A stretch of DNA of 64,000 nt from Halioglobus sp. (lineage in GTDB: Bacteria; Pseudomonadota; Gammaproteobacteria; Pseudomonadales; Halieaceae), in NCBI GenBank assembly GCA_029246385.1, contig JAQWNG010000044.1, positions 6,270 through 70,269 of the forward strand. The letters run 5' to 3'. Shown here one piece after another: positions 11,485 to 26,376 of this stretch; positions within the stretch are counted from its first letter, which is position 1; the number at the start of each line of letters is the position of its first letter. Under the pieces are notes generated by a model. It searched no databases, was not told the origin of the DNA, and was given only the letters and a program-made list of their open reading frames with translations. The translations under genes and the position numbers were made by a program.

Positions 11485-11542
11485 ATCACCTCTCTTAATT
11501 CTTTATAACTACTTCATCTAAATTTTTTTAACAATGCACCAA

Positions 11543-12334
11543 TTAACTGCGTTGACTTGAAACCGGTACTATCTCGCCCGTCATATAGCTCGAATAATCC
11601 GACGACAAAAACATCATGACATTGGCGACTTCCCAAGCCTCCGCGGCACGCCCGTAGGCTTCTTTAGCCTCTAGCTCAGCCAATAATTCTTCCGAGGCAG
11701 ACTTGCGCAACATGGGGTGCAACACAATGGACGGCGCAACAGCATTGATACGCACATTAAAGTCAGCAGCCTCCAATGCAGCGCAACGCGTCAATGCCAT
11801 CACTCCTGCCTTAGCAGCGGCATAGTGCGCCTGTTCTTTTTGTGCACGCCAGCCCAGCACAGACGCATTATTGACAATGACGCCGCCTTGCCCGCGCGCC
11901 TTCATGACCTTCATCATATAGCGCGTCATACGCATAGTGCCGTTAAGTGTTACATCGATGACTCGATTCCACTCATCATCTTCCATTTCCATTAGCAATT
12001 TTGAGCTACCGAGGCCTGCATTGTTAATCAGAATATCGACGCCGCCCATATTCTCTTCAGCGAAATCCACCAGCGAACGCACATCGTCTTCGACCACCAC
12101 ATTGCCTATTTTACCGTAGACTTCAGCAAGACCGGATTCTTGTTTCAGCTTGCCAACCGCTATCGACAATCGACCCTCATGAATATCACTGAGCACAATG
12201 GCGCGGGCGCCCTCTTCTGCAGCCTTGATGGCAGCAGAAAAACCGATTCCGGCGCCGGCTGCCGCGGTTATCAATACGGACTTGCCTTTGATGAGATCGT
12301 GACCGGGCACATATTTGGGCGATTTCAAATTCAT
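11543..12334 (-). CDS. short-chain dehydrogenase/reductase (SDR)
   Basis: The track ORF extends to 12460, overlapping the upstream gene. ATG at 12334 is preceded by AAAGGA, giving 263 aa. Motifs: TAAAGAGIG Rossmann, NNAG, YAAAK catalytic. Confidence 0.85.
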   Translation of the reverse strand: MNLKSPKYVPGHDLIKGKSVLITAAAGAGIGFSAAIKAAEEGARAIVLSDIHEGRLSIAVGKLKQESGLAEVYGKIGNVVVEDDVRSLVDFAEENMGGVDILINNAGLGSSKLLMEMEDDEWNRVIDVTLNGTMRMTRYMMKVMKARGQGGVIVNNASVLGWRAQKEQAHYAAAKAGVMALTRCAALEAADFNVRINAVAPSIVLHPMLRKSASEELLAELEAKEAYGRAAEAWEVANVMMFLSSDYSSYMTGEIVPVSSQRS

Positions 12335-12353
12335 AATGAGTCCTTTAAACCGT

Positions 12354-13556
12354 TCACTTGGCCACACCTTTGGGTTCTTTGGGCATACCCAGACCCCGCT
12401 CGGCAATGATATTACGTTGGATCTGGTTAGTGCCGCCGTAGATAGTGTCAGCGCGGACAAACAAATACATAGATTGTAAACGACTTAAGCTGTACGGCGC
12501 GTCCTCGAGGATTTCGCACTCAGGACCCAATACATCCATTGCCAGCTCACCCAGACTGCGGTGCCAGGTAGACCAAAATAATTTGTAGATAAGGGCTTCC
12601 TTTTGGAGTCCCCCATCGCTACCGCTTTGGCCAGACAAGATACGCATAGAGTTATAACGCATAATTTTTAGCTCTGAATGCGCCCGTGCAAGGCGCTGAC
12701 GAATCGCCGGATCCTTTGCGGCGCCATTATTTTTGGCGACACGAATAACCTCATCTAATTCATTTTGAAATTGCATTTGCTGACCAAGCGTTGACACACC
12801 TCGCTCGAAACCCAGCAGCCCCATTGCCACCTTCCATCCTTCGCCTGGCGCACCGACAATGTCGTCTGCATCACACTGCGCCTCATCAAAAAACACCTCA
12901 TTAAATTCAGAGGTGCCCGTGATCTGCTCGATAGGTCGGACTTCAACCCCGGGCTGGTCCATCTTTATCAGGAAAAATCCCAAGCCTTTGTGTGCTACAG
13001 AATCAAGGTCGGTGCGAGCGATCACAAAACAATAGTTAGACTCATGAGCTAGTGAGGTCCAGACCTTTTGCCCGTTAATAATCCATTTGTTTTGCGCTTC
13101 ATCAAAACGCGCCTTCGTCTTGACGTTGGCCAAATCTGATCCCGCGCTAGGCTCAGAGTAACCCTGACACCACAGTTCAGTACCCGCAACGATACCGGGC
13201 AGATATTTTTTTTTCTGTTCATCGGTACCGAAGGCAATAAGCGTAGGGCCAGCCAGCCCCTCGCCAATATGCCCGACGCGCCCCGGCGCTCCCGCCCGCG
13301 CGTATTCCTCAAAAAAGATCACCTGCTGCTCAATCGAACAGCCACGGCCACCATATTCCTTTGACCAGCCAACGCAGGTCCAACCACCCTCTGCGAGCTT
13401 TTGCTCCCACACTTTGCGTTGCTCGGGGAATGTATGCTCGTCACCGGGCCCACCGCGAAAGCGCAACTTTTCAAATTCGCCGGTCAGATTGACCTGCAAC
13501 CAATTGGCAATCTCCTGTCGAAATTGCTCGTCTTCGGCACTAAAACTTAATTTCAC
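12354..13556 (-). CDS. acyl-CoA dehydrogenase, alpha-type (large) subunit of an adjacent-gene pair
   Basis: 400 aa ACAD fold. The C-terminal motif is IYGGTNQIQRNIIAERGLGMP. Its start overlaps the stop of the upstream ACAD gene by 4 nt. Confidence 0.85.
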   Translation of the reverse strand: MKLSFSAEDEQFRQEIANWLQVNLTGEFEKLRFRGGPGDEHTFPEQRKVWEQKLAEGGWTCVGWSKEYGGRGCSIEQQVIFFEEYARAGAPGRVGHIGEGLAGPTLIAFGTDEQKKKYLPGIVAGTELWCQGYSEPSAGSDLANVKTKARFDEAQNKWIINGQKVWTSLAHESNYCFVIARTDLDSVAHKGLGFFLIKMDQPGVEVRPIEQITGTSEFNEVFFDEAQCDADDIVGAPGEGWKVAMGLLGFERGVSTLGQQMQFQNELDEVIRVAKNNGAAKDPAIRQRLARAHSELKIMRYNSMRILSGQSGSDGGLQKEALIYKLFWSTWHRSLGELAMDVLGPECEILEDAPYSLSRLQSMYLFVRADTIYGGTNQIQRNIIAERGLGMPKEPKGVAK

Positions 13557-14725
13557 GAATCTCCTCCTTCATCCAGCAGCATACAAGCCAAGCGCTCACG
13601 ATGAAAAACACCGTTGCCTAGCAAATGCTCGGAAGATTTTGCACGTTTTAAATACAGGTGGACGTCGTATTCCCAGGTAAAACCCACACCTCCAAACAAC
13701 TGCAGTGCGTCACCGGCAACGGCAAAGTAGGCATCGGAGCAATAGGACTTTGCGACACTGGCCGCCTCACTCAGCTCCGCCGAAAGTGGACCACCCTCCA
13801 GTGCCTCTTGAGCTACGCAGGCGGCATAATAAATCGCGGAACGCGCAACTTCGACTTTCAGCATCATATCGGCGGCTTTATGCTTTACCGCCTGATAACT
13901 CGCAATGGTGCGGTTAAACTGCACTCGCTCGCTGGTATATGCCACCGTCATATCGAGTAGCTGCTGGCAGCCGCCGACCTGCTCCGCAGCCAGTGCAATC
14001 GAGGCGAGGTCAATCACCGTGGACAGCGATTTCCAAGCCTGTCCCGGCTCGCCCATTACAGCATCCGCCGGGAGGCTCACGTTTTTCAGTTGCACAGCGG
14101 CCTGCTTACGCGCCTGATCCATCGTTGGCAACCACTGTCGACTGACGCCGTCGGTGGTTGCCGGCAGCAAAAAGAGGCTAACACCCTCTGCTCCCGTTGC
14201 ACCCTCGGCCCGAGCCGCCACGATCAGAAGGTCAGCAGTATGCCCATCAATGACATAGCGGTAATCACCATTTAACAGATACCCGTCACCCTCACGCCGC
14301 CAGGTCGCGGTAATCGATTCTGCGTCCCAGCGACTTGAACCGCCGTTGAATGCCAATGTTGCAGTCACCGTACCCTGGCACAGTTGCGCTAGCCAGTGCG
14401 CCTGTTGCGATTCACTGCCTGCCACCCGCAACGCATTGCCTGCCAGACAAACGGTGGACAAAAAGGGCGCGCACAGGAGTGAGCGGCCCATCTGCTCCAT
14501 CATGGCAACCAACTCGACATAACCTAGACCCATGCCACCATAGGCTTCCGGCACATGAATTGCCTGCCAGTACATTTCACTGCAGATACGATTCCACAGT
14601 TCAGGCTCATAGCCCTGCTCCGTGTCCATAGCACGACGTACCGCCGCACTATCAGACACCTCAGCGAGAAAGGCGGCCGTTGTATCACGAATCATTTCCT
14701 GTTCTTCTGTAAATGCGAATTCCAT
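13553..14725 (-). CDS. acyl-CoA dehydrogenase family protein, beta-type subunit
   Basis: 390 aa ACAD fold. It lacks the Y-x-G-T-x-x-x-Q motif and instead has QLFGGVGFTWEYDVHLYLKRA near the C-terminus. Confidence 0.8.
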   Translation of the reverse strand: MEFAFTEEQEMIRDTTAAFLAEVSDSAAVRRAMDTEQGYEPELWNRICSEMYWQAIHVPEAYGGMGLGYVELVAMMEQMGRSLLCAPFLSTVCLAGNALRVAGSESQQAHWLAQLCQGTVTATLAFNGGSSRWDAESITATWRREGDGYLLNGDYRYVIDGHTADLLIVAARAEGATGAEGVSLFLLPATTDGVSRQWLPTMDQARKQAAVQLKNVSLPADAVMGEPGQAWKSLSTVIDLASIALAAEQVGGCQQLLDMTVAYTSERVQFNRTIASYQAVKHKAADMMLKVEVARSAIYYAACVAQEALEGGPLSAELSEAASVAKSYCSDAYFAVAGDALQLFGGVGFTWEYDVHLYLKRAKSSEHLLGNGVFHRERLACMLLDEGGDS

Positions 14726-14749
14726 AACTTCTCCGATCAGCGCCTGACT

Positions 14750-15643
14750 TTAGGTGCCCCAGACTTTCTGAGCCGGCACTTCCTCTGCCAACAATTTTTT
14801 CATCGCCACTCCCATTTCGGCTGGCGCCCACGCCGCGCCGCGATCGACGCCGGCTGTCGTGCGCCAACCGTCGCAAATGCAAATGCGACCACCTTCAGAC
14901 TCGAATACTCGCCCAGTCACCGCAGCAGCTTCCGCACTGCCGAGCCACGCCAACAGGTTCGAGACGTTCTCAGGGGCGAAGTGGTCAAAGCTGCCATCCT
15001 CCGGCTTCGCCATGCGTTCAGCCATTTCTGGCACCGCACTGGTCATACCCGTGCGAGCCGAAGGAGCGACTGCATTGGCAGTGATGTTGTATCGACCAAG
15101 CTCTGCGGCTTGATTCAGTGTCAACGCAGCAATACCCGCTTTGGCCGCAGCGTAGTTTGATTGCCCGATGGAGCCCTGCAAGCCGGCACCCGAGGTCGTA
15201 TTGATAATACGTGCATCCACCGGCTGACCTTCCTTTGATCGCCCGCGCCAATAGTGGACGGCGTGAGAGCTGATGCAAAAATGACCTTTAAGGTGCACCG
15301 CCATAATAGTGTCCCACTCTTGCTCGGTCATAGAGGCAAACATACGGTCGCGATTAACGCCGGCGTTGTTTAACACGATATGTAAATCACCGTAGCTGTC
15401 GATGGCCTGCTTAATGGCATTGAGGCTGTCGTCGTAATGCGTGATGTCACTACTGTTAACCACAGCTTTGCCGCCGGCAGCAGTGATCTCGTTCACCACC
15501 GCCTGAGCTGCCTCTGTATTAATATCGTTTACCACAACAGCGCAGCCTTCAGCTGCGAATACTCGTGCGTGTGCCGCGCCCAAGCCACCACCGGCACCGG
15601 TAATGATGGCGACCCGCCCTTGTAGAATTCCACTCATCGTCAA
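14750..15643 (-). CDS. SDR-family oxidoreductase (hydroxyacyl-CoA dehydrogenase-like)
   Basis: 297 aa. Motifs: ITGAGGGLG, NNAG, YAAAKAG. It resembles the dehydrogenase domain of MFE-2/Hsd4A-type and Rv3548c-type enzymes (family level only). Confidence 0.8.
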   Translation of the reverse strand: MTMSGILQGRVAIITGAGGGLGAAHARVFAAEGCAVVVNDINTEAAQAVVNEITAAGGKAVVNSSDITHYDDSLNAIKQAIDSYGDLHIVLNNAGVNRDRMFASMTEQEWDTIMAVHLKGHFCISSHAVHYWRGRSKEGQPVDARIINTTSGAGLQGSIGQSNYAAAKAGIAALTLNQAAELGRYNITANAVAPSARTGMTSAVPEMAERMAKPEDGSFDHFAPENVSNLLAWLGSAEAAAVTGRVFESEGGRICICDGWRTTAGVDRGAAWAPAEMGVAMKKLLAEEVPAQKVWGT

Positions 15644-15701
15644 TATCCTCTCGTTAGGTCCTGTTGCATCGCGTTATAACGTCGCCTCTAGCGGCATCGC
15701 C

Positions 15702-16850
15702 CTATAGACGTTCCAAAATAGTCACGTTAGCCTGACCTCCACCCTCGCACATAGTCTGCAGACCGTACTTACCACCCGTGCGCTCTAACTCATGCAGCAG
15801 TGTCGTCATCAGCTTAGTGCCAGAGGCCCCTAGCGGATGTCCCAGTGCGATCGCACCACCGTTCACATTAGTCTTCTCAATGGGATAACCTGTCTCGATC
15901 AGCCATGCCATCGGCACCGACGCGAACGCCTCATTAATTTCGATATGGTCAATGTCTGATAGTTTTATACCAGATTTTTTAAGCGCATATTCCGTTGCTG
16001 GAATTGGCGCGGTGAGCATCCAAATAGGATCGGCCGCGCGGACGCTCATGTGCACGATGCGCGCACGCGGGGTCAAGTTATAGCGCTTCAGTGCCGCCTC
16101 TGACACCACCAGCAACGCCGAAGATCCGTCACAGGTCTGACTCGACACCGCTGCGGTAATCGTGCCGCCTTCCATCAACGGTTCCAATTCAGCCATTTTT
16201 TCCATCGAGGTATTGCGTGGCGTCTCATCCATAACAACACCATTGAGGGGTACAATCTCGCGATCGAAGCGCCCTTGCTCAATCGCAGCAAGCGCCAGCG
16301 TGTGCGAGCGTAGTGCAAATTCTTCCATCTGCTCGCGTGAAATTTTCCACTTGTCTGCAATCATTTGTGCAGACACAAACTGCGACGGTGGCGTACTACC
16401 GTAACGCGCAACCCAACCTTGGCTCCCTGAAAACGGATCACTGAACCCCATAGGCTGTGCCGCGATCATCGCGGAGGAGATTGGAATCTGCGTCATAGTC
16501 TGAACTCCACCGGCGACGACCACATCATTAACACCAGCAATAATAGCCTGCGCAGCAAAGTGCACGGCCTGTTGCGAAGAGCCACACTGGCGATCAATGG
16601 TCGTGCCCGGCACTGCATCAGACAGACCCGCAGCAAGCCACGCAGTGCGCGCAATATCGCCAGCGAGGGGTCCAATCGTATCGACGCAGCCAAACATCAC
16701 GTCATCGTACTCAGCATCGGGAATGCCGTTACGCTCGACTAACGCTTTCAACACATGAGCCCCGAGATCCGCACCGTGAACATCACTAAGGCCTCCTTTG
16801 CGGCGACCTGTCGGTGAGCGTACTGCGTCAACTATGTATGCGTCTGTCAT
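15702..16850 (-). CDS. thiolase (FadA6-like by context)
   Basis: 382 aa. Motifs: MTDAYIVDAVRSPTGRRKGG, RQCGSSQQA, NGGAIALGHPLGASG, CEGGGQA. Confidence 0.85.
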   Translation of the reverse strand: MTDAYIVDAVRSPTGRRKGGLSDVHGADLGAHVLKALVERNGIPDAEYDDVMFGCVDTIGPLAGDIARTAWLAAGLSDAVPGTTIDRQCGSSQQAVHFAAQAIIAGVNDVVVAGGVQTMTQIPISSAMIAAQPMGFSDPFSGSQGWVARYGSTPPSQFVSAQMIADKWKISREQMEEFALRSHTLALAAIEQGRFDREIVPLNGVVMDETPRNTSMEKMAELEPLMEGGTITAAVSSQTCDGSSALLVVSEAALKRYNLTPRARIVHMSVRAADPIWMLTAPIPATEYALKKSGIKLSDIDHIEINEAFASVPMAWLIETGYPIEKTNVNGGAIALGHPLGASGTKLMTTLLHELERTGGKYGLQTMCEGGGQANVTILERL

Positions 16851-16867
16851 GTGTATACCCTTTATTT

Positions 16868-17914
16868 TTAAACAAAAGTGGCGCCAGCACCCAGCACCGC
16901 GTCTGTGGCGAACACACGTTCGCCAATACGTGTTTTGTGGAAGCCTGCGTCACCCCAGGTGTTGGCCAGCGCCCACGCTTTCTTCATAAAAATATGCAGG
17001 TCAACTTCCCACGTGTAACCCATCGCACCGTGAACCTGCACACTGTTTTTTGCGGCCAGATTCGCAGCCTCGCAGGCGACCAGTTTAGCGTGTGACACGG
17101 CGTGGGCCGCAACACCCTGACCCGTTGCTACGGCGTAAGCGGCGCGATGCGTCGGTGCCTTGGCGTATTCAAGGCGCACTGCGACGTTGGCCATGTGATG
17201 CTTTACTGCCTGAAAACTTCCGATAGGCTTTCCGAACTGCTGACGCTCACCGGTATAATGCACCGATAGATCAATCATTCGCTGCGCCAGCCCTAAGACT
17301 TGAGCGGCACAGCCCAGCGCACCGCGATTGAGCGTGCGGGCAATCAGCGTTGCGGCCTGCTCACCGCTAGCAACCGGGGCGGCACTATCGAGCAGTTCCA
17401 CCGTGAACAACTTTCGCGACGGGTCAACGGACTCGCTGTAGCATAGACTGAACTGATCCGGCGTCGCGGCATAGAGTGTACCGCCCTGCTGCATCAACAG
17501 AAGATCAGCCACATGTGCGTCCTCTACTAACAGATTCTGCTCTAGGCCAACAACAACCTTCGCCTCACCACTGGCCACCTTAGGCAACCATTGCTCAGCT
17601 AACTCACCGCCGAGGTCATTGAGCAGGGGAACCGCAACCATCACCGTATGCACCAAGGGTTCAGGTAATCCAACGTAGCCACACTCCTGTGCCAACAGCA
17701 CAAAATCCAGCACCGTCATACCGAGACCACCGTTCGCTTCCGACACCGTCATACCTGTCAACCCCAACTCTGCGAGCTGATTCCATAACGCGTCTTCGCG
17801 GCCACTGTCGGTTAACCAACTGGCGCGAATACGTTCAGGGGTTACTTCGTTAACCAGAAAGTCTCGCACGGATTCCTGAAACAGCAGTTGATCTTCGGAA
17901 AATGTAAAATCCAT
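16868..17914 (-). CDS. acyl-CoA dehydrogenase family protein, beta-type (small) subunit
   Basis: 348 aa. The C-terminal motif is VQVHGAMGYTWEVDLHIFMKKA and there is no YxGT motif. It starts 3 nt after the stop of the upstream ACAD. Confidence 0.8.
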   Translation of the reverse strand: MDFTFSEDQLLFQESVRDFLVNEVTPERIRASWLTDSGREDALWNQLAELGLTGMTVSEANGGLGMTVLDFVLLAQECGYVGLPEPLVHTVMVAVPLLNDLGGELAEQWLPKVASGEAKVVVGLEQNLLVEDAHVADLLLMQQGGTLYAATPDQFSLCYSESVDPSRKLFTVELLDSAAPVASGEQAATLIARTLNRGALGCAAQVLGLAQRMIDLSVHYTGERQQFGKPIGSFQAVKHHMANVAVRLEYAKAPTHRAAYAVATGQGVAAHAVSHAKLVACEAANLAAKNSVQVHGAMGYTWEVDLHIFMKKAWALANTWGDAGFHKTRIGERVFATDAVLGAGATFV

Positions 17915-17917
17915 AAA

Positions 17918-19081
17918 TTACCTCGGCATTCCCAGCATTCGTTCGGCGACAATGTTACGCTGTACTTCATTCGTGCCGGCATAAATCGGTCCAGACTGGG
18001 AGAACAACCACCCATCCAACCATGTGCCTACACCGTTCGCAGCCGGCGCGTGCGCAGCGAGTTCCGCTCGAGCACCTAAAATACTCATGGCGGTGGCGTG
18101 CATATTCTGGTCCAACTCCGACCAAAAAATTTTATTGGTAGAGGACTCTGCTCCAATCTTGCCGCCTTTATTTAAACGACAGGCCGTCTGATAAGTTGCA
18201 AGACAGTAACTCTCCGCATCAAGATAAGCACCAAGGACCGCATCTTTGACCGCAGGATCACAATCTGCCGACGCGCGATTAGCCATATACAGCTCGACCA
18301 GGCGCCGTGCGGTTTCCTGAAAACGCGCCGGCGAGCGCAACATCAGGCCGCGCTCGAAGCCCGCTGTTGCCATCGCAACACCCCAACCTGCGCCCTCATC
18401 ACCAAGGCGATTCTCAATGCCAACCTCAACATTATCGAAGAATATTTCCGCGAAGCCGGGCAGCCCGTCGAGCTGCGGAATCGGGCGCACAGTGATACCC
18501 GGACTGCTCAGCGGCACCAAAATAAACGTAAGACCCCGATGGCGTTCAGACTGCGGATCTGTGCGAAACATACCGAAACACCAGTCCGCCCATACGGCTC
18601 GGGTAGACCACGTTTTCTGGCCGTTAATAATATACTTGTCCCCCTGCAGCATCGCGGTGGTGCGTATTGCCGCCATATCGGAGCCCGCGTTGGGCTCTGA
18701 CCAAGCCTGCGCCCACACCTCTTCACCGTTGGCCATTTTAGGAAGGATGCGCGCTTTCTGTTCTTCTGTGCCGTACTCCATCAGGGTCGGACCGAGGAGA
18801 AAGATACCGTTCTGGTTCACGCGCAACGGGGCCCGCATTTTGTAATATTCTTCCTCGAAGATCAGCCACTCGATCAAATCGCAGCCGCGGCCGCCCAGCA
18901 CCTGCGGCCATGTCACCATCCCCCAGCGGCCTTTGTTGAGCGTTGCTTCCCATGCTCTGTGCTGCGTAAAACCTTCCTCAGTATCAAAGCTTTTCAGCGC
19001 CTCAACTGGGACATTGTCGGCGAGCCAGCTGCGAACCTCCTCACGAAAGGCCTGCTGTTGCTCTGTATATGCAAGATCCAT
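17918..19081 (-). CDS. acyl-CoA dehydrogenase, alpha-type subunit
   Basis: 387 aa. The C-terminal motif is IYAGTNEVQRNIVAERMLGMPR. Confidence 0.85.
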   Translation of the reverse strand: MDLAYTEQQQAFREEVRSWLADNVPVEALKSFDTEEGFTQHRAWEATLNKGRWGMVTWPQVLGGRGCDLIEWLIFEEEYYKMRAPLRVNQNGIFLLGPTLMEYGTEEQKARILPKMANGEEVWAQAWSEPNAGSDMAAIRTTAMLQGDKYIINGQKTWSTRAVWADWCFGMFRTDPQSERHRGLTFILVPLSSPGITVRPIPQLDGLPGFAEIFFDNVEVGIENRLGDEGAGWGVAMATAGFERGLMLRSPARFQETARRLVELYMANRASADCDPAVKDAVLGAYLDAESYCLATYQTACRLNKGGKIGAESSTNKIFWSELDQNMHATAMSILGARAELAAHAPAANGVGTWLDGWLFSQSGPIYAGTNEVQRNIVAERMLGMPR

Positions 19082-19084
19082 TGT

Positions 19085-19843
19085 CTAATCCTTAAACGTC
19101 ACGTCACGTTTTTGTACAAAAGCATCGCGCGACTCCTGCGAGTCATCCATGGTGTAAGCTTCCAACGTAAAGCCTTGTTCCCAGCGATACTTATCTTCTA
19201 GATTGCCATCCTCAATACCGGTGAGCGCTTCCTTAGCCAGCTTGACCATTGCTGGCGATTTCGCCGCAATTTTAGCGGCAATATCCCGCGCGGCAGGCAG
19301 CAGTTCAGACAGCGGCACCACTTTTTCTACAGCGCCCAGTCGGTAGGCCTCCTGTGCGTCAATAAACTCTCCGGTAAAGTACATATAACGCACTTTTTGT
19401 ACCGGAAACATGCGCTGCAGATGCGCGCCACCACCCATGGCGCCGCGATCAATTTCCGGCACACCAAAGCGCGCGCAGTCAGAGCAGATAATAATGTCAG
19501 CAGCGCCGGCCATGCCAATCCCACCGCCGAGCACAAAACTGTGCAATGCGATAATCACCGGCTTGGGGTTACGATGAATGGCGCGAAAAGTCTCGTAGTT
19601 ACCCTTGTTGACATCCACTATTTTTGAGGGATGTGCAGCGAGTTCCTTGATATCCACACCGGCACAAAACCCTTTTCCAGCCGCACCAATAATGACTACG
19701 CGGACATCATCATTGACACCTAGCGCATCAATCTGAGCCGCAATAGAGAACCAGCCTGCGCTGTCAAAAGCGTTAACTGGAGGATGATCGAGAATCATCT
19801 CCGCAATACCGTTTTCGATACTCACCTTAAAAGGCTTGGACAT
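19085..19843 (-). CDS. enoyl-CoA hydratase/isomerase (crotonase) family, EchA20-like by context
   Basis: The track ORF extends to 19936 over the upstream gene. ATG at 19843 is preceded by AGGAG, giving 252 aa. Crotonase motifs: PPVNAF, FCAGVDIKE, GGGIGMAG. Confidence 0.85.
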   Translation of the reverse strand: MSKPFKVSIENGIAEMILDHPPVNAFDSAGWFSIAAQIDALGVNDDVRVVIIGAAGKGFCAGVDIKELAAHPSKIVDVNKGNYETFRAIHRNPKPVIIALHSFVLGGGIGMAGAADIIICSDCARFGVPEIDRGAMGGGAHLQRMFPVQKVRYMYFTGEFIDAQEAYRLGAVEKVVPLSELLPAARDIAAKIAAKSPAMVKLAKEALTGIEDGNLEDKYRWEQGFTLEAYTMDDSQESRDAFVQKRDVTFKD

Positions 19844-19847
19844 AACA

Positions 19848-20927
19848 CTACTCCTGAGAATGTTCGGTAACGCGCAGTGATAAACAAGTAAGGCGTTGCT
19901 TGGCCTCGGTAACAATAGAATTAACCAGCTGCTCACAGCTCAGCAACTCGTTGATCACACCCGCCACCTGACCCGAGGGCAGAACACCTAGCGACGGCTC
20001 ACCGTCAACCATCGCCTTTTGGATGATCATTGGCGCGTTGGCAGACATGATTGCCTGAGCCGCGGTCATGTCATCGTCCTTGCCCATGGCAATAGCAGAC
20101 TGCAACAAACTAAACAACGTGGCACCGGTGTGCTTTCGAAACGCGAGCCCGTTACGCATCGCAATAATCAGCTTGCGCACAGTGCTAGCCTTCTCTAGTT
20201 CGGTAAGTAACTCATTCATAATCATACGCTGAGGTATGCCGTCCATCGCTTTGGAGACGATAATGTTGCCGGGGTTTTTACAGTCGACATAACGCTGCAG
20301 CGTCTCTTGCGGCACAGGGCTTTCGTCAGTCATTAAAAAGCGTGTCCCCATCGCAATACCATCTGCGCCCCACGATAGTGCAGCCAGTAAACCACGACCG
20401 TCCTTGAATCCGCCCGCCCCCACCACAGGTACTTTGTCTGCAACGGCATCAACGACCTGTGGGACCAGCAACGTGGTCGGGATTGGGCCGGTGTGACCAC
20501 CCCCTTCTCCACCTTGAACCGTCACGGCGTCAGCGCCAAGCTCTACGGCCTTAATCGCATGCTTTGGCAGGCCCACAGTCGGCATACAAACCACGCCTGC
20601 ACCCTTAAGCTTATGAATGAGCTCTGGGCCAGGGGAACGAGAATAGCTGACTGCTCGCACACCGTGGCGAATCACCATATCGACAATATCTGACGCATTA
20701 GGCTGATACATATGGAAATTGACGCCGAAAGGCTTGTCTGTGAGCTCCTTTACACGCAGGATATCCCGCTCCATTTCATCAGCAGGAATAGTTGCCCCGG
20801 CGAGAAAACCGAAAGCACCCGCATTGCAACTCCCTGCGACCAATTTTGGGTCGGCCACCCAGCCCATGGCGGTTTGGACAATGGGATAGCGACAGCCTAG
20901 AAGTGTCGTTAAGCGCGTTTCAAGCAT
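19848..20927 (-). CDS. ipdC: nitronate monooxygenase (NMO/2-nitropropane dioxygenase) family FMN oxidoreductase; IpdC-like acyl-CoA reductase by context
   Basis: 359 aa. Motifs: PIVQTAMGWVA, GGEGGGHTG. It sits directly downstream of the IpdAB-like pair, as Rv3553 does in M. tuberculosis. Confidence 0.7.
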   Translation of the reverse strand: MLETRLTTLLGCRYPIVQTAMGWVADPKLVAGSCNAGAFGFLAGATIPADEMERDILRVKELTDKPFGVNFHMYQPNASDIVDMVIRHGVRAVSYSRSPGPELIHKLKGAGVVCMPTVGLPKHAIKAVELGADAVTVQGGEGGGHTGPIPTTLLVPQVVDAVADKVPVVGAGGFKDGRGLLAALSWGADGIAMGTRFLMTDESPVPQETLQRYVDCKNPGNIIVSKAMDGIPQRMIMNELLTELEKASTVRKLIIAMRNGLAFRKHTGATLFSLLQSAIAMGKDDDMTAAQAIMSANAPMIIQKAMVDGEPSLGVLPSGQVAGVINELLSCEQLVNSIVTEAKQRLTCLSLRVTEHSQE

Positions 20928-20942
20928 GCATATTGCCTCGTG

Positions 20943-21743
20943 TCAGGAGCGGTTTCCTGGGGGATTATCGAGTATCTGGTGCGCCCGCTGGTTATGTGGA
21001 TCTAATGCAGCAATGATATCCAATTGTTCCTGCGTCGGCGCCTCAGTCGTTGGCACCTCTGCTGGAATGTGTAATGGATAACCGGTATTCTGCTGCACCT
21101 CTTCTACTGAAACACCCGGGTGCAATGACACCAACCGAATCTGATGATCCGGGCCACCGAAGTCCATCACGCACAAGTTGGTAATCACCAACCGGATATC
21201 GATATCGTCTAAGCTGTGCCCTTTGGGAAGGCGCGCTGGGTTATAGCCAATAGATGACACGAAGTCGCACTCACCTTCTTTAAATACGCGGGTATTGTGT
21301 CCGGGTACAAAAAAACTGTTCGGGTGAGAAATTGAGTTTCCCGGAAAGCCTCGGGCACCGAGCATCATGGTCTTAGGCTTATCATAGCTACCACCGAGCG
21401 CCGAAGTATTGGATTGACCATACTTATCAATCTGGGTCGGCCCGAGCATAGCATGCCGCTTACGACTCCAAACGTTGTCGAAGATGCGTGAAAACCCCAT
21501 CCAGCTCTCCGTTGATGGGACGAAGTCCGGGGCACGACTGCCGATCGGGTTTGGCTCACTCAACATCCACGCTTCCGAGTCAGTCATCATCAAATCAGGA
21601 TTAGTGGTTTTCATGGCAAGGCTGGCCGCCAGACGAGGAACCACACCAATACCGGTGCCCAATACTTCGCCTTCATTGGCGAAGGACTTGCTGGCGGCGA
21701 CAATGCAAAGTTCGGCCAGGGTATATTCAGCTGCTGCTGTCAT
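20943..21743 (-). CDS. ipdB: CoA-transferase family beta subunit, IpdB-like
   Basis: 266 aa. The N-terminus EYTLAELCIVAASKSF is typical of beta subunits of the IpdAB (COCHEA-CoA ring-opening) clade. It is paired with the alpha subunit 24 nt upstream. Confidence 0.75.
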   Translation of the reverse strand: MTAAAEYTLAELCIVAASKSFANEGEVLGTGIGVVPRLAASLAMKTTNPDLMMTDSEAWMLSEPNPIGSRAPDFVPSTESWMGFSRIFDNVWSRKRHAMLGPTQIDKYGQSNTSALGGSYDKPKTMMLGARGFPGNSISHPNSFFVPGHNTRVFKEGECDFVSSIGYNPARLPKGHSLDDIDIRLVITNLCVMDFGGPDHQIRLVSLHPGVSVEEVQQNTGYPLHIPAEVPTTEAPTQEQLDIIAALDPHNQRAHQILDNPPGNRS

Positions 21744-21767
21744 TGCGTCTCTCTCCTGGTGGTTCGA

Positions 21768-22646
21768 TTAATAGGTAGGCAATTCAATAGCGCAGATGGC
21801 ATCGAGGCCGCCCACATTATTTTGATATTCTTGTTCAGAGGCGCCGAGGTATTTCTGAACATAGTCTTTAAATCCCCCCTCTCCTTTGGCCGAGGCCGCA
21901 TAAGCCTTAAAATGCGCCACATCGAAGCCGTATAGCGGACTGCAAGACGTGGGGTGAGCGCCTCCGGCTATCGGCACCACGCCGCTGGTCATGGACCGCT
22001 CCCAATGCACCATGCGCGCTTGTGCAGGATCGTGAAAGTACTCAGACTCAACCAGTTCATCGCAAGACACAAAAGTCTTGACCGCCGCGCGTGCAAACCA
22101 GTCATCCATGTAATGATCAGGGCCGGCAATCTGACACACACCGCGCGCATCCGCCTTATCTGCATGAATGAGCGAAGCGTCCAGTTTTAGTGCAGGCATA
22201 GCGACCCATTCCTTTTCGTCATAAGGACTGTCGATCACTTTGATGCCAGGATTTTGAGTAATGACATCTGTACCTAAACCAACCTCTGTAGGAATAAAAG
22301 GAATACCCCAACTTGCTGCGCGCAACCCCAAGAGCATCATCCCCTCATCAATTTCCATCACTTCGATAGAGCCGGACTGACGGGCCTGACGAAAGTAAGG
22401 CTCCAGAGGAATAAAATCCAGCGAGACAAACGCGAATACAACCTTTTTCACCTTACCCGCAGCACACAACATACCGACGTCAGCACCGCCATAGGCAACG
22501 ATAGTAAGATCCTTTAGACTGGAGCGTAAAATTTCGCGCACTAGCGCCATTGGCTTGCGCCGTGGACCCCAACCACCGATACCAACGGTCATACCGTCTT
22601 CAAGTTGCGCGACGACTTCTGTCGCCGTCATTTGCTTGTTCATCAC
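21768..22646 (-). CDS. ipdA: CoA-transferase family alpha subunit, IpdA-like
   Basis: 292 aa. GMTVGIGGWGPRRKPMALVREILRS..DLTIVAYGG..GKVKKVVFAFVSLD and AMPALKLDASLIHA are collinear with my recollection of M. tuberculosis IpdA (Rv3551). Confidence 0.8.
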   Translation of the reverse strand: MMNKQMTATEVVAQLEDGMTVGIGGWGPRRKPMALVREILRSSLKDLTIVAYGGADVGMLCAAGKVKKVVFAFVSLDFIPLEPYFRQARQSGSIEVMEIDEGMMLLGLRAASWGIPFIPTEVGLGTDVITQNPGIKVIDSPYDEKEWVAMPALKLDASLIHADKADARGVCQIAGPDHYMDDWFARAAVKTFVSCDELVESEYFHDPAQARMVHWERSMTSGVVPIAGGAHPTSCSPLYGFDVAHFKAYAASAKGEGGFKDYVQKYLGASEQEYQNNVGGLDAICAIELPTY

Positions 22647-22658
22647 TTCCTTCCTTTT

Positions 22659-23123
22659 CTAGCTGACGATCCGCGCCATGCGGTAGTCGTGTTTGATGAA
22701 ATTAACACCGAGAGTACTGTGCGCACTGCGCACGCCTGCGACAACACTAATCCGCTGATGTACAAACTCCGCCAAGTGCTCTGCGTTGCGCACCATGGTG
22801 ATTGCAAGGATATCGGAGCGGCCCAGCATCACCCCAACGAATCCTAACTCCGTGATATCCGCCAACTGCTCGGCAACGGCCTTGGTCTGTCCACTGCGCT
22901 CAACCTCAATCCAAATATAGGCCAGCGCGGCGTCCTTAAAACGATCAATATTGGTGACCGCTGTGATACGAATCAATTTTTCTTCTTCCATGCGCTTCAC
23001 CCTAGCGCGCACAGTGCCTTCAGTCACACCCAGTCGCTCAGCGATATCTCGATTACTTACCCGAGCATCGCGCGACAGTCGCTCGACGATAGCGAGGTCT
23101 GCTGCGTCAAGCTTACGCCGCAT
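22659..23123 (-). CDS. Lrp/AsnC-family transcriptional regulator
   Basis: 154 aa. HTH segment LDAADLAIVERLSRDARVSNRDIAERLGVTEGTVRARVKRM followed by a RAM-type ligand domain. It overlaps the upstream paralogue by 11 nt. Confidence 0.85.
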   Translation of the reverse strand: MRRKLDAADLAIVERLSRDARVSNRDIAERLGVTEGTVRARVKRMEEEKLIRITAVTNIDRFKDAALAYIWIEVERSGQTKAVAEQLADITELGFVGVMLGRSDILAITMVRNAEHLAEFVHQRISVVAGVRSAHSTLGVNFIKHDYRMARIVS

Positions 23124-23607
23124 GAAAAGGCACCCAGTCAGGCTGGTTCTTCAGCACATCTAGTGCAAGCGCCGGAGTGAGACGCCTCACGCCCGAAATA
23201 GCACCTAAGGTGCCACTAATCAATTCACTCAGCGCTGCCTGATTCTTGGACAGCACAAGAATTTCAATATCCTGCGCACCCACCACGACGTTGACGGAGA
23301 ACACCTCTGGGATAGCGGCCATTTCCCGCGCCACGACTTCTGGCGAACGCCCTTCGACTTGCACACCGATGGCCAGTAACATGCCGAAGCCCGCCGCTTC
23401 TGTGTCCGTCACCGCCACCACTCGCATCGTGTTGGACTCTTCCATGCGGCGCACCCGCGCCCGCACCGTATTTTCCGCGATATCCAGCTCGCGCGCGATA
23501 GCCCGATAGGCCATACGCCCGTCCGCGCGCAGCAGTGCAATAATCGCCTGATCCGTGTTGTCTAGGTCGATGTGGCGAGAGTGTGTACTGGCGGATAAAT
23601 CGTTCAC
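23113..23607 (-). CDS. Lrp/AsnC-family transcriptional regulator
   Basis: 164 aa. HTH segment LDNTDQAIIALLRADGRMAYRAIARELDIAENTVRARVRRM plus a RAM domain. Its GTG start overlaps the ligase stop (GTGA). Confidence 0.85.
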   Translation of the reverse strand: MNDLSASTHSRHIDLDNTDQAIIALLRADGRMAYRAIARELDIAENTVRARVRRMEESNTMRVVAVTDTEAAGFGMLLAIGVQVEGRSPEVVAREMAAIPEVFSVNVVVGAQDIEILVLSKNQAALSELISGTLGAISGVRRLTPALALDVLKNQPDWVPFHAA

Positions 23608-25190
23608 CGTTTTACCTCGGCGCTATTTGCCAATGCCGCTTTATCCACTTTTCCGCCCGCATTTATCGGAAGCTCGGGCAGGAAGACGACTGACCGCGGC
23701 ATCTTGTAATTCGCCATATGCGCCCGCGACCACTCAATAACCGCTGCCTCATCTACTGGATCGCCAGCATCCTTCACCAAAAAGGCTTTGGCTACCTCGC
23801 CCATGCGCTCATCGAACACACCGATTATCGCCGCCCTCGCGATGCCAGGCATGTCACACAGAATATTCTCAATTTCAGCGGGATAGCAGTTGAATCCTCC
23901 GACAATAAACATTTCCTTAATACGCCCAGTGATGCGCACGTAACCATCTTCATCCATAACGCCAACATCACCCGTTTTAAGCCAGCCATCATGGGTGATT
24001 GCGTCTGTCGTTGCTTCGCCATTGTTAAAATAATGGTGCATCACGTTGAAACCCCGAACCCAGATTTCCCCATCAACACCGGCAGCAACACACTGTCCTT
24101 GCTTGTCGACGCATTGAATTTCCGTTCCATCCATCGCGCGCCCAGAACTATGAGAAACACGCTCGGCACTGTCGTCGGCGCGGCAAATGGACACCACCCC
24201 ACACGTCTCAGTGAGCCCGTAGGCCGTCACCACGACTTCAAAACCCAGCTCCTCGCGCATCTGTCGTACCAGTTCGACCGGCACTGGCGCCGCGCCGGTC
24301 ACGGCGAGACGCAAACTGGATAGGTCATACTCTTTGCGCCGTGGATGCGCGAGCAGTGACTGGTAGATCGTCGGCGGCCCAGGAATCATGGAAATTTTTT
24401 CGCTCTCGATCTGCGCCAGCACAGCATCAAGATCGAAACTGAGCACCGGAATCATGCGGGCACCGCAAATAATGGCGGACAACCAGCCAGCCTTATAGCC
24501 AAAGGAGTGGAAGAACGGATTGATGATCAGATAATTGTCATCGCTGCACAGAGCGACAGTCGCACTCCAGTTCTCGAAGGTACGGATATTCTGGCCGTGC
24601 CCCGTCACCACACCCTTTGGGTTACCGGTGGTACCAGAGGTGAAAAGAATGTCTAGCGTATCACCGGGGGTTACTGCGGACGCTCTTAACGCCACCTCTT
24701 TCACCGGAACAGCCTCCCCAGCCGCAAGAAAATCTTCCCACGACTGGCACCCCGCCGCCACACCACTGAACAACACCGTGCGTTCGAGATCAGGGAGCGT
24801 CTGGCCAGCCAGCATTGCAGGGTAGTGCATGCCAAGAAAATCGCCCACCGTAAACAGCAGTTTCGCACCACTGGAACGAATGATGTAGGCGCCCTCAGAA
24901 CCCTTGTAGCGCGTATTCAGGGGAACCAGCACGCCCCCGATGCTCTGCGCGCCGATGGCCGCGATAATCCACTGGTAGATATTAGGCGCCCAGATAGCAA
25001 TGCGCTCTCCTTTTTCAAGCCCAGCGGCAATAAAGGCCCGCGCCGCACGCACCCGAGCAGCATCGAGCTGCTCGTAAGTCAGCTGCACCTCGCCATCAAT
25101 GATGGCAATGCGTGGGCCATAAGCCGCCGCCGCGTCGACAACGACCTGCGGCAGGGTACGCTCTTTGTATTGTTGGTTCGGATTAAGCAA
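23604..25190 (-). CDS. AMP-dependent acyl-CoA synthetase (FadD3/HIP-CoA ligase-like by context)
   Basis: 528 aa. Motifs: AMP-binding FTSGTTGNPKGV, TAYGLTE, TGD, GGKVDK. It is the first gene of the 15-gene block. TTG start. Confidence 0.8.
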   Translation of the reverse strand: MLNPNQQYKERTLPQVVVDAAAAYGPRIAIIDGEVQLTYEQLDAARVRAARAFIAAGLEKGERIAIWAPNIYQWIIAAIGAQSIGGVLVPLNTRYKGSEGAYIIRSSGAKLLFTVGDFLGMHYPAMLAGQTLPDLERTVLFSGVAAGCQSWEDFLAAGEAVPVKEVALRASAVTPGDTLDILFTSGTTGNPKGVVTGHGQNIRTFENWSATVALCSDDNYLIINPFFHSFGYKAGWLSAIICGARMIPVLSFDLDAVLAQIESEKISMIPGPPTIYQSLLAHPRRKEYDLSSLRLAVTGAAPVPVELVRQMREELGFEVVVTAYGLTETCGVVSICRADDSAERVSHSSGRAMDGTEIQCVDKQGQCVAAGVDGEIWVRGFNVMHHYFNNGEATTDAITHDGWLKTGDVGVMDEDGYVRITGRIKEMFIVGGFNCYPAEIENILCDMPGIARAAIIGVFDERMGEVAKAFLVKDAGDPVDEAAVIEWSRAHMANYKMPRSVVFLPELPINAGGKVDKAALANSAEVKR

Positions 25191-25257
25191 AGATTACTCG
25201 CAATTCATAGACCATAAGATTTATATGATAATCAGTATCCTATCAGTTTAAAACAAT

Positions 25258-25291
25258 TATTCGTAGATTTTTTACACTTATATTACGAATA
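25258..25291. promoter_or_regulatory. 8-bp perfect inverted repeat in the AT-rich region upstream of the ligase/Lrp/ipd operon
   Basis: TATTCGTA (25258-25265), an 18-nt AT-rich spacer, then TACGAATA (25284-25291). It lies 68-101 nt upstream of the ligase start at 25190. Confidence 0.4.
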
Positions 25292-25348
25292 CAGACAAGA
25301 CAAGGCACAACCCCGTCGAGAGACGCCGTTGCATCCCGACCGGATCGA

Positions 25349-25864
25349 TTACTGTGGCAGCGAAATCTCCATAATCGGTAACTCGTCTGGCATCCCGCCC
25401 AGCGACACGGCACAGCGAGAAAATCCACTGAAGTGAGCGACCACCAGTGATAGGTGGACCAGCGCTTTCGAGGTAAATTCCGCCAGCAATTCTGTCTTGA
25501 GCTGCTCTGTGAGACCACGCGGGTTCGCGAGAAACTGATCGGTAAATGCCACAATTAACTTCTCACGCTTGCTCAGGTCACTGCCTCTGAAATCGTCCTG
25601 AATCATCGCGACCTTGTCTTCGCTAAGCCCGTCTGCCTTTGCAATATCGTAACGCACGCTTTTACAGAAGACGCAATTGACTGTTCGAGCATTACGCAAA
25701 CGTGCAATCTCGATTTCTGACGGCGTGAGCGGGCCGCACTCCCAGATTTTTCGGTTGAGCGCCGCGTAATAGTCCAGCGTCTCTGGCACAAGGCCTAACG
25801 CGGAATCACGAATCATATTACCGCTAGGATTATTAGGGTTAACTGCGCGTGGGCCGCCCGTCAT
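25349..25864 (-). CDS. carboxymuconolactone decarboxylase (CMD)/AhpD-like family protein with CxxC
   Basis: The track ORF extends to 25909. ATG at 25864 overlaps the upstream stop (ATGA), giving 171 aa. It contains NCVFCKSVR (CxxC). Confidence 0.7.
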   Translation of the reverse strand: MTGGPRAVNPNNPSGNMIRDSALGLVPETLDYYAALNRKIWECGPLTPSEIEIARLRNARTVNCVFCKSVRYDIAKADGLSEDKVAMIQDDFRGSDLSKREKLIVAFTDQFLANPRGLTEQLKTELLAEFTSKALVHLSLVVAHFSGFSRCAVSLGGMPDELPIMEISLPQ

Positions 25865-26376
25865 AGTAGTTGTCCAGGCGGTTGCGTCGGAGCGGCCGCC
25901 AGCTGCCACAGAAGACTGAGCCGGGTCATGCCGTCGAGGATACCAAGCGCTTCCACCAACAATACCAAGCCTGCGTCACCGAAATGCATTTTCACGGCGT
26001 CAGCATGCTGGTCTGTTAATGCCTGCACATCCATGGCATAAACTTCAGTGAACGCAAGACAGGCGCGCTCTGCCGGTGAAAACAGACTCCCTGTATCCCA
26101 GTGCGCCAGATGGGCAGTTTTGCCTGCGGGGATTGCAATCTCCTGCCGCTGCAACTCAACAGCACAGCGATGCAACTGTGCGAGGCGTAATCGACACAAC
26201 TCTAGAACATCGGCGGGCACGTGCGACTGTGTCCACAAAGATGCATATAGCGCGTCGAATGGGGCCGCCAGTTCCGCAAGCTCGCCAATCGTGGTATCAC
26301 GATCATCACCATTAGTTACCCAACCCATAGACATCCCCTGAACGTTAAAACCTGTGCTAACACTCTGCTGGAGCAA
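25861..26376 (-). CDS. CMD/AhpD-like family protein (no CxxC)
   Basis: 171 aa from TTG at 26376; ATG at 26334 or 26328 (AGGGG 6 nt upstream) are alternative starts. The helical AhpD-like pattern (LELCRLRLAQLHRC) has no CxxC. Confidence 0.6.
   Translation of the reverse strand: MLQQSVSTGFNVQGMSMGWVTNGDDRDTTIGELAELAAPFDALYASLWTQSHVPADVLELCRLRLAQLHRCAVELQRQEIAIPAGKTAHLAHWDTGSLFSPAERACLAFTEVYAMDVQALTDQHADAVKMHFGDAGLVLLVEALGILDGMTRLSLLWQLAAAPTQPPGQLL

Follow-up and report, generated by a model that had tools for sequence, protein, structure and literature searches.

Regulation of bacterial steroid breakdown is understood mainly in Actinobacteria, with the TetR-family proteins KstR and KstR2, and in Comamonas; TesR is of the LuxR type. 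KstR2 is a repressor of the actinobacterial C/D-ring (HIP) regulon and responds to HIP-CoA. The Lrp/AsnC family of feast/famine regulatory proteins (FFRPs) forms tetramers and octamers and includes local activators of adjacent catabolic operons such as BkdR. Archaeal FFRPs moreover form hetero-oligomers, for example FL11 with DM1, a stand-alone RAM domain that lacks the helix-turn-helix (HTH). To our knowledge, no regulator has been described for steroid breakdown in Halieaceae and Spongiibacteraceae or in sphingomonad bile-salt degraders. For the marine members of the first two families steroid degradation is predicted, and it has been shown for some isolates (PMC5790920). Here we analyze a 64-kb stretch of DNA from Halioglobus sp. 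(Halieaceae; contig JAQWNG010000044.1), referred to in its entirety as the window, in which two Lrp/AsnC genes, lrpA and lrpB (A and B), lie between fadD3 and ipdA in a C/D-ring (HIP) operon (Table 1). Comparison of sequences makes it likely that the two genes encode the halves of one heterodimeric Lrp/AsnC regulator, that is, the split form of an A-B protein, which binds an inverted repeat with an 18-bp spacer (N18) and thereby controls the HIP operon including its own genes.

All sequence and fold criteria tested assign both proteins to the Lrp/AsnC family: The HTH_AsnC-type domain PF13404 (E 3e-14 in lrpB, 4e-13 in lrpA) and the AsnC_trans_reg/RAM domain PF01037 (E 1e-9 in each) score above the Pfam cut-offs, PF22482 is matched too, and neither protein has a TetR Pfam match. 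At 100% identity lrpA agrees with a GenBank protein of a Halioglobus sp. MAG, which places the window in the marine family Halieaceae. Their closest solved relatives by sequence are the DNA-binding regulators PH0140, FL11, LrpA and Mycobacterium tuberculosis AldR. The two proteins are 36% identical over 142 residues (E 2e-23), and their basic recognition-helix motifs are conserved over 75 pairs plus five sphingomonad pairs. The GxxD loop of the RAM domain is kept in the A type in every lineage and is variable in the B type, whose loop Asp is not conserved in sphingomonads. An earlier reading of the window, made from the sequence alone, had placed two Lrp/AsnC genes with tight junctions between the ligase and ipdA. 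The placement is borne out by the open reading frames (ORFs), the Pfam domains and the score of the upstream ligase, which at 701.3 bits passes the 657-bit cut-off of the NCBIfam FadD3 equivalog NF005801 and is by sequence a member of the FadD3 (HIP-CoA ligase) family. The junctions can all be read directly: The TGA of fadD3 and the GTG of lrpA share four nucleotides as GTGA, lrpA and lrpB overlap by 11 nt (23113-23123), and the stop of lrpB is separated from the listed GTG of ipdA by 12 nt bearing the Shine-Dalgarno-like AAGGAAGG; an ATG lies 3 nt past this GTG. The genes are all on the minus strand.

The strongest available argument that A and B form one unit comes from genes in which they are fused. 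An exhaustive HMMER search with lrpA against 1.84 billion representative proteins (50% clustering) gave 83 matches below 1e-30, and 116 of the best 150 representatives were two-module proteins (310-365 aa, two matched stretches). Profiles of the two types, derived from the split pairs, were used to type the modules. The N-terminal module was A-type in 102 of the 116, and among the C-terminal modules 52 were B-type, 34 ambiguous and 16 A-type; a clear B-then-A order was found in none of them. Three fused genes, P0121 of Halieaceae metagenome-assembled genomes (MAGs), P0306 of the cultured Halioglobus pacificus and P0313 of a Spongiibacteraceae MAG, lie exactly between fadD3 and ipdA, and ipdB, ipdC and the enoyl-CoA hydratase (ECH) gene continue downstream. 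The fusion start overlaps the fadD3 stop at P0121 and P0306 and lies 3 nt past it at P0313. In the fused proteins lrpA corresponds to the N-terminal and lrpB to the C-terminal module; P0121 reads from an A-specific KNQPDxVPF tail through a linker of ~45 residues into a B module that ends in KHDYRMxRIV. Because this Rosetta-stone fusion occupies the identical genomic slot, gene comparison implies that A and B would work as one unit. Two further candidates were excluded from the evidence as possible assembly or sequencing errors: P0016, an in-frame A/B chimera on a 1-kb contig, and P0053, a read-through with a truncated B.

An AlphaFold2 model of P0306, computed with an alignment of 34 fused homologs, reached a pLDDT of 90.8 and a pTM of 0.86, with uncertainty confined to the linker and the beta-alpha-beta-beta-alpha-beta pattern present in the RAM of both modules. 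The high pTM points to a defined arrangement of the two modules, and the fused ortholog is accordingly predicted by the model to be a compact two-module pseudo-dimer. The hetero-oligomer that the sequence-only reading had suggested thus gains strong comparative support from the same-slot fusions, with which the predicted pseudo-dimer is consistent. That A and B instead form separate homo-oligomers with distinct roles, as activator and antagonist or as two sensors, we regard as improbable. Each protein does keep a complete HTH and RAM, homo-oligomers are the default of the family, and with 16 two-module representatives typed A-A the identity of the modules is not strictly A-B throughout. Separate homo-oligomers are, however, difficult to reconcile with the A-then-B order in split pairs of two bacterial classes and in fusions, with a single fused gene replacing the pair in the same slot, with the predicted pseudo-dimer, or with the conserved overlap of the junction described below. 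A distant fused two-module protein, P0334 (Logan contig SRR22405855_59032, L192 788-1867), is 34% identical to P0121 and neighbors a FAD oxidoreductase, an AveC-like gene and an RPE65-type carotenoid oxygenase, i.e., a non-steroid yet lipophilic-substrate context.

The predicted fold also raises the question of whether A and B are regulators at all. The siroheme decarboxylases AhbA/AhbB and NirDL demonstrate that paired or fused Lrp-like modules can be enzymes (PMC4145669), and A and B might likewise form a heterodimer with the Lrp fold that acts as an enzyme or accessory protein. NirDL provided the only full-length Foldseek matches of the P0306 model (TM 0.63-0.67, 16% identity), and both window proteins show weak matches to the Pfam family NirdL-like_HTH. 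These matches, at 24.6 and 19.4 bits, nevertheless stay under the 27-bit cut-off, and a sequence search of the solved structures in the PDB returned no AhbA/B or NirDL chain at E<=1e-5. Taken singly, the P0306 modules best match the DNA-binding FFRPs PH0140, FL11, AsnC and NMB0573 (27-31% identity, TMt 0.8-0.9), whereas their identity to AhbA/B is 13-14% and that to the enzymes as a whole, including NirDL, 13-16%. Furthermore, the basic recognition helices are retained, the A/B genes come with a conserved operator-like site, and no heme d1 (nir) or alternative heme (ahb) genes lie nearby, the neighbors being fadD3, ipdAB, ipdC, ECH, acyl-CoA dehydrogenases (ACADs), thiolases and short-chain dehydrogenases/reductases (SDRs). 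With these findings, an enzymatic role is hardly credible.

Conservation was followed in a one-genome-per-species scan with lrpA, which gave 220 relatives; the best 80, all Halieaceae (Halioglobus, Haliea, Seongchinamella and Pseudohalioglobus), were kept and viewed over ~8 kb on each side. Identity of the lrpA orthologs is 66-91% among these best 80 of 220 and that of the lrpB orthologs 71-96% in Halieaceae. The two regulators and the enzymes show approximately the same degree of conservation. According to tblastn with the window proteins, the order fadD3-A-B-ipdA-ipdB-ipdC-ECH-ACAD is found in all 80 species loci where the contig allows it; the pair, whose absence from close relatives had been set beforehand as grounds for giving up the idea, is thus kept throughout. 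In 67 of the 70 scorable loci the stop of A overlaps the start of B, the shared stretch being 11, 5 or 1 nt long, and the junction is therefore no quirk of one genome. The conserved Halieaceae cluster contains no regulator genes besides A and B. One MAG, MFD09848.bin.2.30, contributes two loci (L009 and L026; CAVQGV010000014.1 and CAVQGV010000008.1), each with a full fadD3-A-B-ipdAB cluster; either the cluster is duplicated or the bin is mixed. Broken tblastn alignments at several of the MFD-derived loci suggest frameshift errors of assembly.

More distant relatives were taken from plasmid records and from the representative-protein search. The nearest ones outside Halieaceae in plasmid records belong to Novosphingobium and Sphingobium and are nearly always annotated as two adjacent Lrp/AsnC genes. 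In all-against-all BLAST comparisons Halioglobus A best matches the first gene of the sphingomonad pairs (44-46% identity) and Halioglobus B the second (36-44%), whereas A and B inside any one pair are 26-36% identical. By this sequence comparison, A and B are ancient paralogs in a fixed A-then-B order that are orthologous across two bacterial classes. The pair of S. herbicidovorans MH is located among hsaC-ipdAB-ipdC, hsaADB and hsaEFG genes, those of Novosphingobium sp. P6W and N. aromaticivorans pNL2 10 kb and 15 kb from hsaC-ipdAB, respectively. The sequence-only reading had proposed to check the placement between fadD3 and ipdA in other Proteobacteria. This stands for Cellvibrionales (Halieaceae and Spongiibacteraceae) and does not extend to the sphingomonads, where the pairs sit elsewhere in the cluster, nor to the Vibrio alfacsensis plasmid cluster (hsaC and ipdAB directly) and the Caballeronia cluster (fadD3-hsaC-ipdA), in which no Lrp pair was seen. 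Plasmid matches from Rhodococcus jostii pRHL1, Nonomuraea and M. ulcerans are 34-36% identical to A, no nearer than A is to B. The same reading knew of no Lrp-type pair described for this pathway, and the literature searched yielded no characterization and a single mention: A paper of 2026 notes in passing, and with no experiment of its own, that in the bile-salt cluster of Sphingobium sp. Chol11 two contiguous Lrp/AsnC genes occupy the place of the TetR gene of Caenibius tardaugens (PMC12882949). The Chol11 genes are NCHOL11_RS15865/15860. For this regulator, for two-module Lrp/AsnC transcription factors and for the operator, our search turned up no experimental study, with the results for the operator arm swamped by unrelated eukaryotic LRP papers.

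A candidate binding site accompanies the genes. The predicted operator, ATTCGTA-N18-TACGAAT, extends to TATTCGTA/TACGAATA at 25258-25291 and has a single match in the 64-kb window, in the 158-bp region upstream of fadD3, where shuffled sequences led us to expect 0. An exact copy, 32 bp long in every case, is present once in each of 47 Halieaceae loci, and with up to two mismatches the operator is found in all 66 usable Halieaceae upstream regions. In these 66 regions the arm cores TTCGTA and TACG-A are invariant and the N18 spacing is fixed, the spacer being mostly A/T, while the flanking intergenic sequence has diverged to almost no information. A probable sigma-70 promoter lies immediately downstream, with 5-6 bp between the end of the repeat and the -35 element; a consensus scan reads it as TTTAAA-16-TATCAT in the window, and the -35 TT and the -10 TAnTAT, 17 nt apart, are kept in ~95% of the aligned regions. 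The center of the repeat is probably ~55 bp upstream of the transcription start, as judged from the promoter match. A reading of the repeat as an RNA hairpin or terminator was rejected: It would fold with only -3.5 kcal/mol around an 18-nt loop, its arms are invariant and it lies upstream of the probable promoter. Given the poor hairpin and the lack of compensatory changes, the repeat resembles a DNA site bound by protein. Control from the upstream promoter, for which the sequence-only reading had named the interval 25191-25348, is therefore supported at the sequence level by a conserved inverted repeat inside it (25259-25290) and by sites in other regulator-bearing lineages.

In the loci with fused genes the site is found 64-108 nt upstream of fadD3, as TATTCGTA-N18-TACGAAAA, TATGCGTA-N18-TACGCATA and AATGCGTA-N18-TACGCATT; in H. 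pacificus the spacer is not A/T-rich, and the arms and N18 are still kept. Four sphingomonads have an exact T(T/G)CGTA-N18-TACG(A/C)A in the intergenic region heading the hsaC-ipdAB operon. Over 173 kb of sphingomonad loci, a spacer of 18 gave nine sites, eight of them intergenic, and every other spacer from 10 to 26 gave 0-1. On pMSHV of S. herbicidovorans three further N18 sites with one mismatch are all intergenic, with 0.2 expected (L085 23674-23703, L085 7575-7604 and L083 16905-16934): One lies upstream of a TonB-dependent receptor, one in a choline dehydrogenase-like/SRPBCC interval and one in an SDR/LLM oxidoreductase interval. Because there are several sites, a larger regulon is probable in S. 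herbicidovorans, and the sequences suggest that the sphingomonad regulon comprises several operons, unlike the one site per Halieaceae locus. The Vibrio alfacsensis and Caballeronia clusters, both without the regulator, also lack the N18 site. A comparison by eye of the arm variant (TTCGTA/TGCGTA) with the recognition-helix residues of A or B across lineages revealed no clear covariation.

Metagenomes were scanned with the stricter exact-arm pattern, which would miss weaker sites. Among the 80 loci obtained, 39 sites adjoin fadD3 and four lie on truncated Halieaceae contigs from the region upstream of fadD3. Most other matches come from contigs with less than 38% G+C, where an A/T-rich pattern is apparently matched by chance; no neighboring gene could be recognized at the remaining matches of higher G+C. 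At this stringency no second Halieaceae-type promoter with the operator was found. One locus, L162 (Ga0224495_10015416), has a lone Lrp/AsnC gene (1650-2233; 167 aa, 33% identical to lrpB) that is followed by an MttB-like methyltransferase gene and preceded, at a distance of 49 nt, by an exact ATTCGTA-N18-TACGAAT, which a second, partial copy overlaps. The site at this lone homolog is an independent link of the motif type to this Lrp/AsnC branch and suggests that the 6-N18-6 operator type is common to a wider branch of the family with other ligands.

These distributions bear on whether the repeat might be bound by another factor, or be a promoter element such as an UP element, while the Lrp pair regulates other targets. 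The A/T-rich spacer is indeed located where UP elements lie, the arm spacing is atypical for Lrp dimers, and only part of each genome was viewed. We nonetheless judge this very improbable: The site co-occurs with the split or fused regulator in Halieaceae, Spongiibacteraceae and four sphingomonads and is missing where the regulator is missing, A and B are the sole regulator genes of the conserved Halieaceae cluster, H. pacificus keeps the arms and N18 around a spacer that is not A/T-rich, and the lone homolog has the same site at its own promoter.

Several observations weigh against a heterodimeric A-B regulator that acts through the N18 repeat. First, since the view of each Halieaceae locus was limited to ~8 kb on either side, another regulator may exist elsewhere in these genomes. 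Second, the generalized pattern TKCGTA-N18-TACGMA was written after the first sphingomonad site had been seen, and the shuffle statistics are therefore partly post hoc; the spacer control, which mitigates this problem, and the intergenic placement are better arguments. Third, no N18 site was found beside the sphingomonad pairs L001 and L002, and likewise L084. Fourth, the arm centers are 24 bp apart, which is unusual for one Lrp dimer, with sites of typically 13-15 bp. As this distance is beyond the reach of the two HTHs of one dimer, at least two A-B units would probably be needed. Fifth, the S. herbicidovorans site overlaps a near-consensus TTGACA-N18-TATATA promoter and thus has a repressor-like position, so that the sign of control may differ between lineages or be repression throughout. 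Finally, the A-type RAM keeps the GxxD loop that is typical of amino-acid-binding members and would fit an amino-acid effector. Upstream of the pair in L001 (N. aromaticivorans pNL2, ~8850-8900) we noticed everted hexamers, ATACGCAAAA-(~26 nt)-TTTTGCGTAT, also given as TACGCAAAA...TTTTGCGTA, which may represent a different binding geometry or a coincidence.

The identity of the effector deserves closer consideration. Nearly all characterized members of the family, including Lrp, AsnC, FL11, BkdR and AldR, bind amino acids or close analogs, and the closest solved structures do so as well, for example PH0140 with Ile. Together with the A-type GxxD loop kept in every lineage and the amine-metabolism context given to the lone L162 homolog, with the same operator, by the adjoining MttB-like gene, this raises the possibility that the pair regulates the operon in response to amino acids or nutritional state (feast/famine), thereby tying HIP catabolism to nitrogen or carbon status. 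We consider this unlikely, as the operon contains no amino-acid metabolism genes, the regulator is fixed in steroid clusters of two bacterial classes, the scan for exact arms detected the site in Halieaceae-type DNA at the fadD3 promoter only, and the B-type loop Asp is not conserved in sphingomonads. Fixity in steroid clusters and a site restricted to fadD3 fit a dedicated pathway sensor rather than a global regulator.

For the heterodimeric A-B regulator we therefore envisage the following sequence of events. One mRNA would serve for the translation of fadD3, A, B and ipdAB, and the overlapping junctions would probably hold A and B at approximately equal amounts. The A-B complex would bind T(T/G)CGTA-N18-TACG(A/C)A at the fadD3 promoter and, via the repeat abutting the -35 element, control the whole C/D-ring (HIP) operon, lrpA and lrpB included. 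Because the site is centered ~55 bp upstream of the probable start, beside a weak -35 element, ligand-dependent activation with positive autoregulation appears to be the likelier mode; alternatively, the complex might repress by masking the UP-like A/T tract or by wrapping DNA. Pathway logic and the response of KstR2 to HIP-CoA would favor HIP or HIP-CoA as the effector. In its fullest form, which we put forward tentatively as possible rather than probable, the proposal holds that A and B are an obligate heterodimer or fused pseudo-dimer whose RAM senses HIP or HIP-CoA, that the 6-N18-6 repeat is read asymmetrically, with one module on an arm and the other on non-specific DNA, and that the regulator is the C/D-ring switch of marine Cellvibrionales and, with a larger regulon, of Sphingomonadaceae.

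Table 1. Genes and predicted control elements of the lrpA-lrpB operon, in window coordinates.
Feature	Coordinates	Strand	Description
fadD3 (HIP-CoA ligase family), first gene of the operon	25190..23604	-	528 aa; AMP-binding domains, NF005801
lrpA, A-type Lrp/AsnC module	23607..23113	-	GTG start, 164 aa; HTH_AsnC and RAM, C-terminal KNQPDWVPF
lrpB, B-type Lrp/AsnC module	23123..22659	-	ATG start, 154 aa; DARVSN..IA..LGVTEGTVRARVKR HTH, RAM, C-terminal KHDYRMARIV
ipdA-like CoA transferase subunit A	22646..21768	-	Pfam CoA_trans, synteny
ipdB-like CoA transferase subunit B	21743..20943	-	weak CoA_trans match, conserved synteny
Nitronate monooxygenase (NMO)-type, ipdC-like	20927..19848	-	
Enoyl-CoA hydratase, PRK07938 family, echA20 slot	19936..19085	-	
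Remaining C/D-ring (HIP) run	10282..20927	-	presumed regulated cargo
Predicted operator ATTCGTA-N18-TACGAAT	25259..25290; arms 25284-25290, 25259-25265		inverted repeat, A/T-rich spacer
Probable sigma-70 promoter	25225..25253	-	-35 TTTTAA/TTTAAA (~25253-25247), -10 TATCAT (25230-25225); consensus match only

The C/D-ring (HIP) context of lrpA and lrpB is real, since the genes downstream are ipdB-like, ipdC-like, ECH, ACAD, thiolase and SDR genes. Their order in the remaining run is NMO/ipdC-like, ECH, ACAD, IpdE2-like ACAD, thiolase (PRK07801), SDR (PRK07791), two ACADs, SDR and thiolase, and the ipdB-like gene shares 50-70% identity with the gene after ipdA in the steroid clusters of sphingomonads, Vibrio and Caballeronia. 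The steroid genes of the 64-kb window are confined to this C/D-ring run (~10282-25190), with no homologs of kshA, kstD or hsaA-D seen there, and the ring A/B genes, if present, are therefore located elsewhere in the genome. The run is flanked by housekeeping genes (pyruvate dehydrogenase E1/E2, NadA, M16 peptidase, GGDEF/EAL proteins). The listed ECH ORF begins with a GTG at 19936 and overlaps the ipdC-like ORF by 89 nt (19848-19936 region). Because its Pfam match begins at residue 40 and tblastn alignments in many relatives begin downstream, its true start is probably later and the overlap smaller.

Upstream of the operon, a carboxymuconolactone-decarboxylase (CMD)-family ORF (25349..25909, -) lies between a second acyl-CoA ligase gene and the fadD3 promoter and is overlapped by a 171-aa ORF (25861..26376, -) with no Pfam match. 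A CMD-like gene was detected by tblastn in the closest relatives only (L003, L006), and S. herbicidovorans has a CMD-family gene 2 kb from its Lrp pair (L083 14521-15078). The second ligase (26404-28044, -) scores 808.8 bits against the 822-bit cut-off of the 3-(methylthio)propionyl-CoA ligase equivalog. In many Halieaceae it is conserved at this place upstream of fadD3, accompanied by an MBL-fold gene and a trans-2-enoyl-CoA reductase; it may lie outside the steroid pathway.

Neither the family nor the pathway is new; what has not been described is their combination, in which a heterodimeric or fused regulator with an unusual operator would act in the breakdown of the steroid C/D rings in marine Cellvibrionales and sphingomonads. 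If correct in its fullest form, the proposal would add a third independent regulatory solution besides the TetR proteins KstR/KstR2 and the LuxR-type TesR. Candidate regulator, operator, target promoters in several lineages and culturable hosts can be named, several species of the Halieaceae set being cultured, which makes direct tests possible. The operator could serve as a sequence marker for the regulon in metagenomes. The split-or-fused two-module form is widespread, apparently uncharacterized as a transcription factor, and would offer a natural case for the effects of heterodimerization on DNA and ligand recognition. Should the effector be a steroid-derived acid or CoA thioester, the ligand range of the RAM domain would be broader, and a biosensor part for intermediates of steroid degradation could result.

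Compared with described systems, the window pair resembles KstR2 in its presumed dedicated control of fadD3, ipdAB, echA20 and the downstream beta-oxidation-like genes and in being encoded inside the cluster that it would control. The analogy is functional and implies no kinship, as KstR2 is a TetR protein and A and B are Lrp/AsnC proteins; moreover, the predicted operator is a 30-bp inverted repeat with an 18-bp spacer that lies upstream of the -35 element rather than over the promoter. With the classical FFRPs (E. coli Lrp and AsnC, Pyrococcus FL11 and PH0140, P. putida BkdR) the pair shares the two-domain fold and its closest sequence and structure matches. These proteins are homo-oligomers of one polypeptide that recognize 13-15-bp palindromes and respond to amino acids, whereas here two diverged paralogs or their fusion, a predicted 6-N18-6 site and a steroid-ring catabolic context are found. 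FL11 and DM1 set a precedent for mixed assemblies of different Lrp-family paralogs, but these partners are neither encoded as a conserved, overlapping and ordered pair nor fused. The sphingomonad pairs (Chol11; S. herbicidovorans MH; N. aromaticivorans pNL2; Novosphingobium sp. P6W) are likewise overlapping A-then-B genes in steroid clusters; they differ from the window pair in sharing only 36-46% identity with it and in lying elsewhere in the cluster than the fadD3-ipdA slot. Two diverged Lrp-like modules in a heterodimer or a one-chain pseudo-dimer are otherwise represented by AhbA/AhbB and NirDL (PDB 4czd, 4ch7, 4czc), the only solved example of this architecture. Those proteins are enzymes of heme d1 or alternative heme synthesis, and the window pair departs from them in sequence (13-16% identity) as well as in genomic context.

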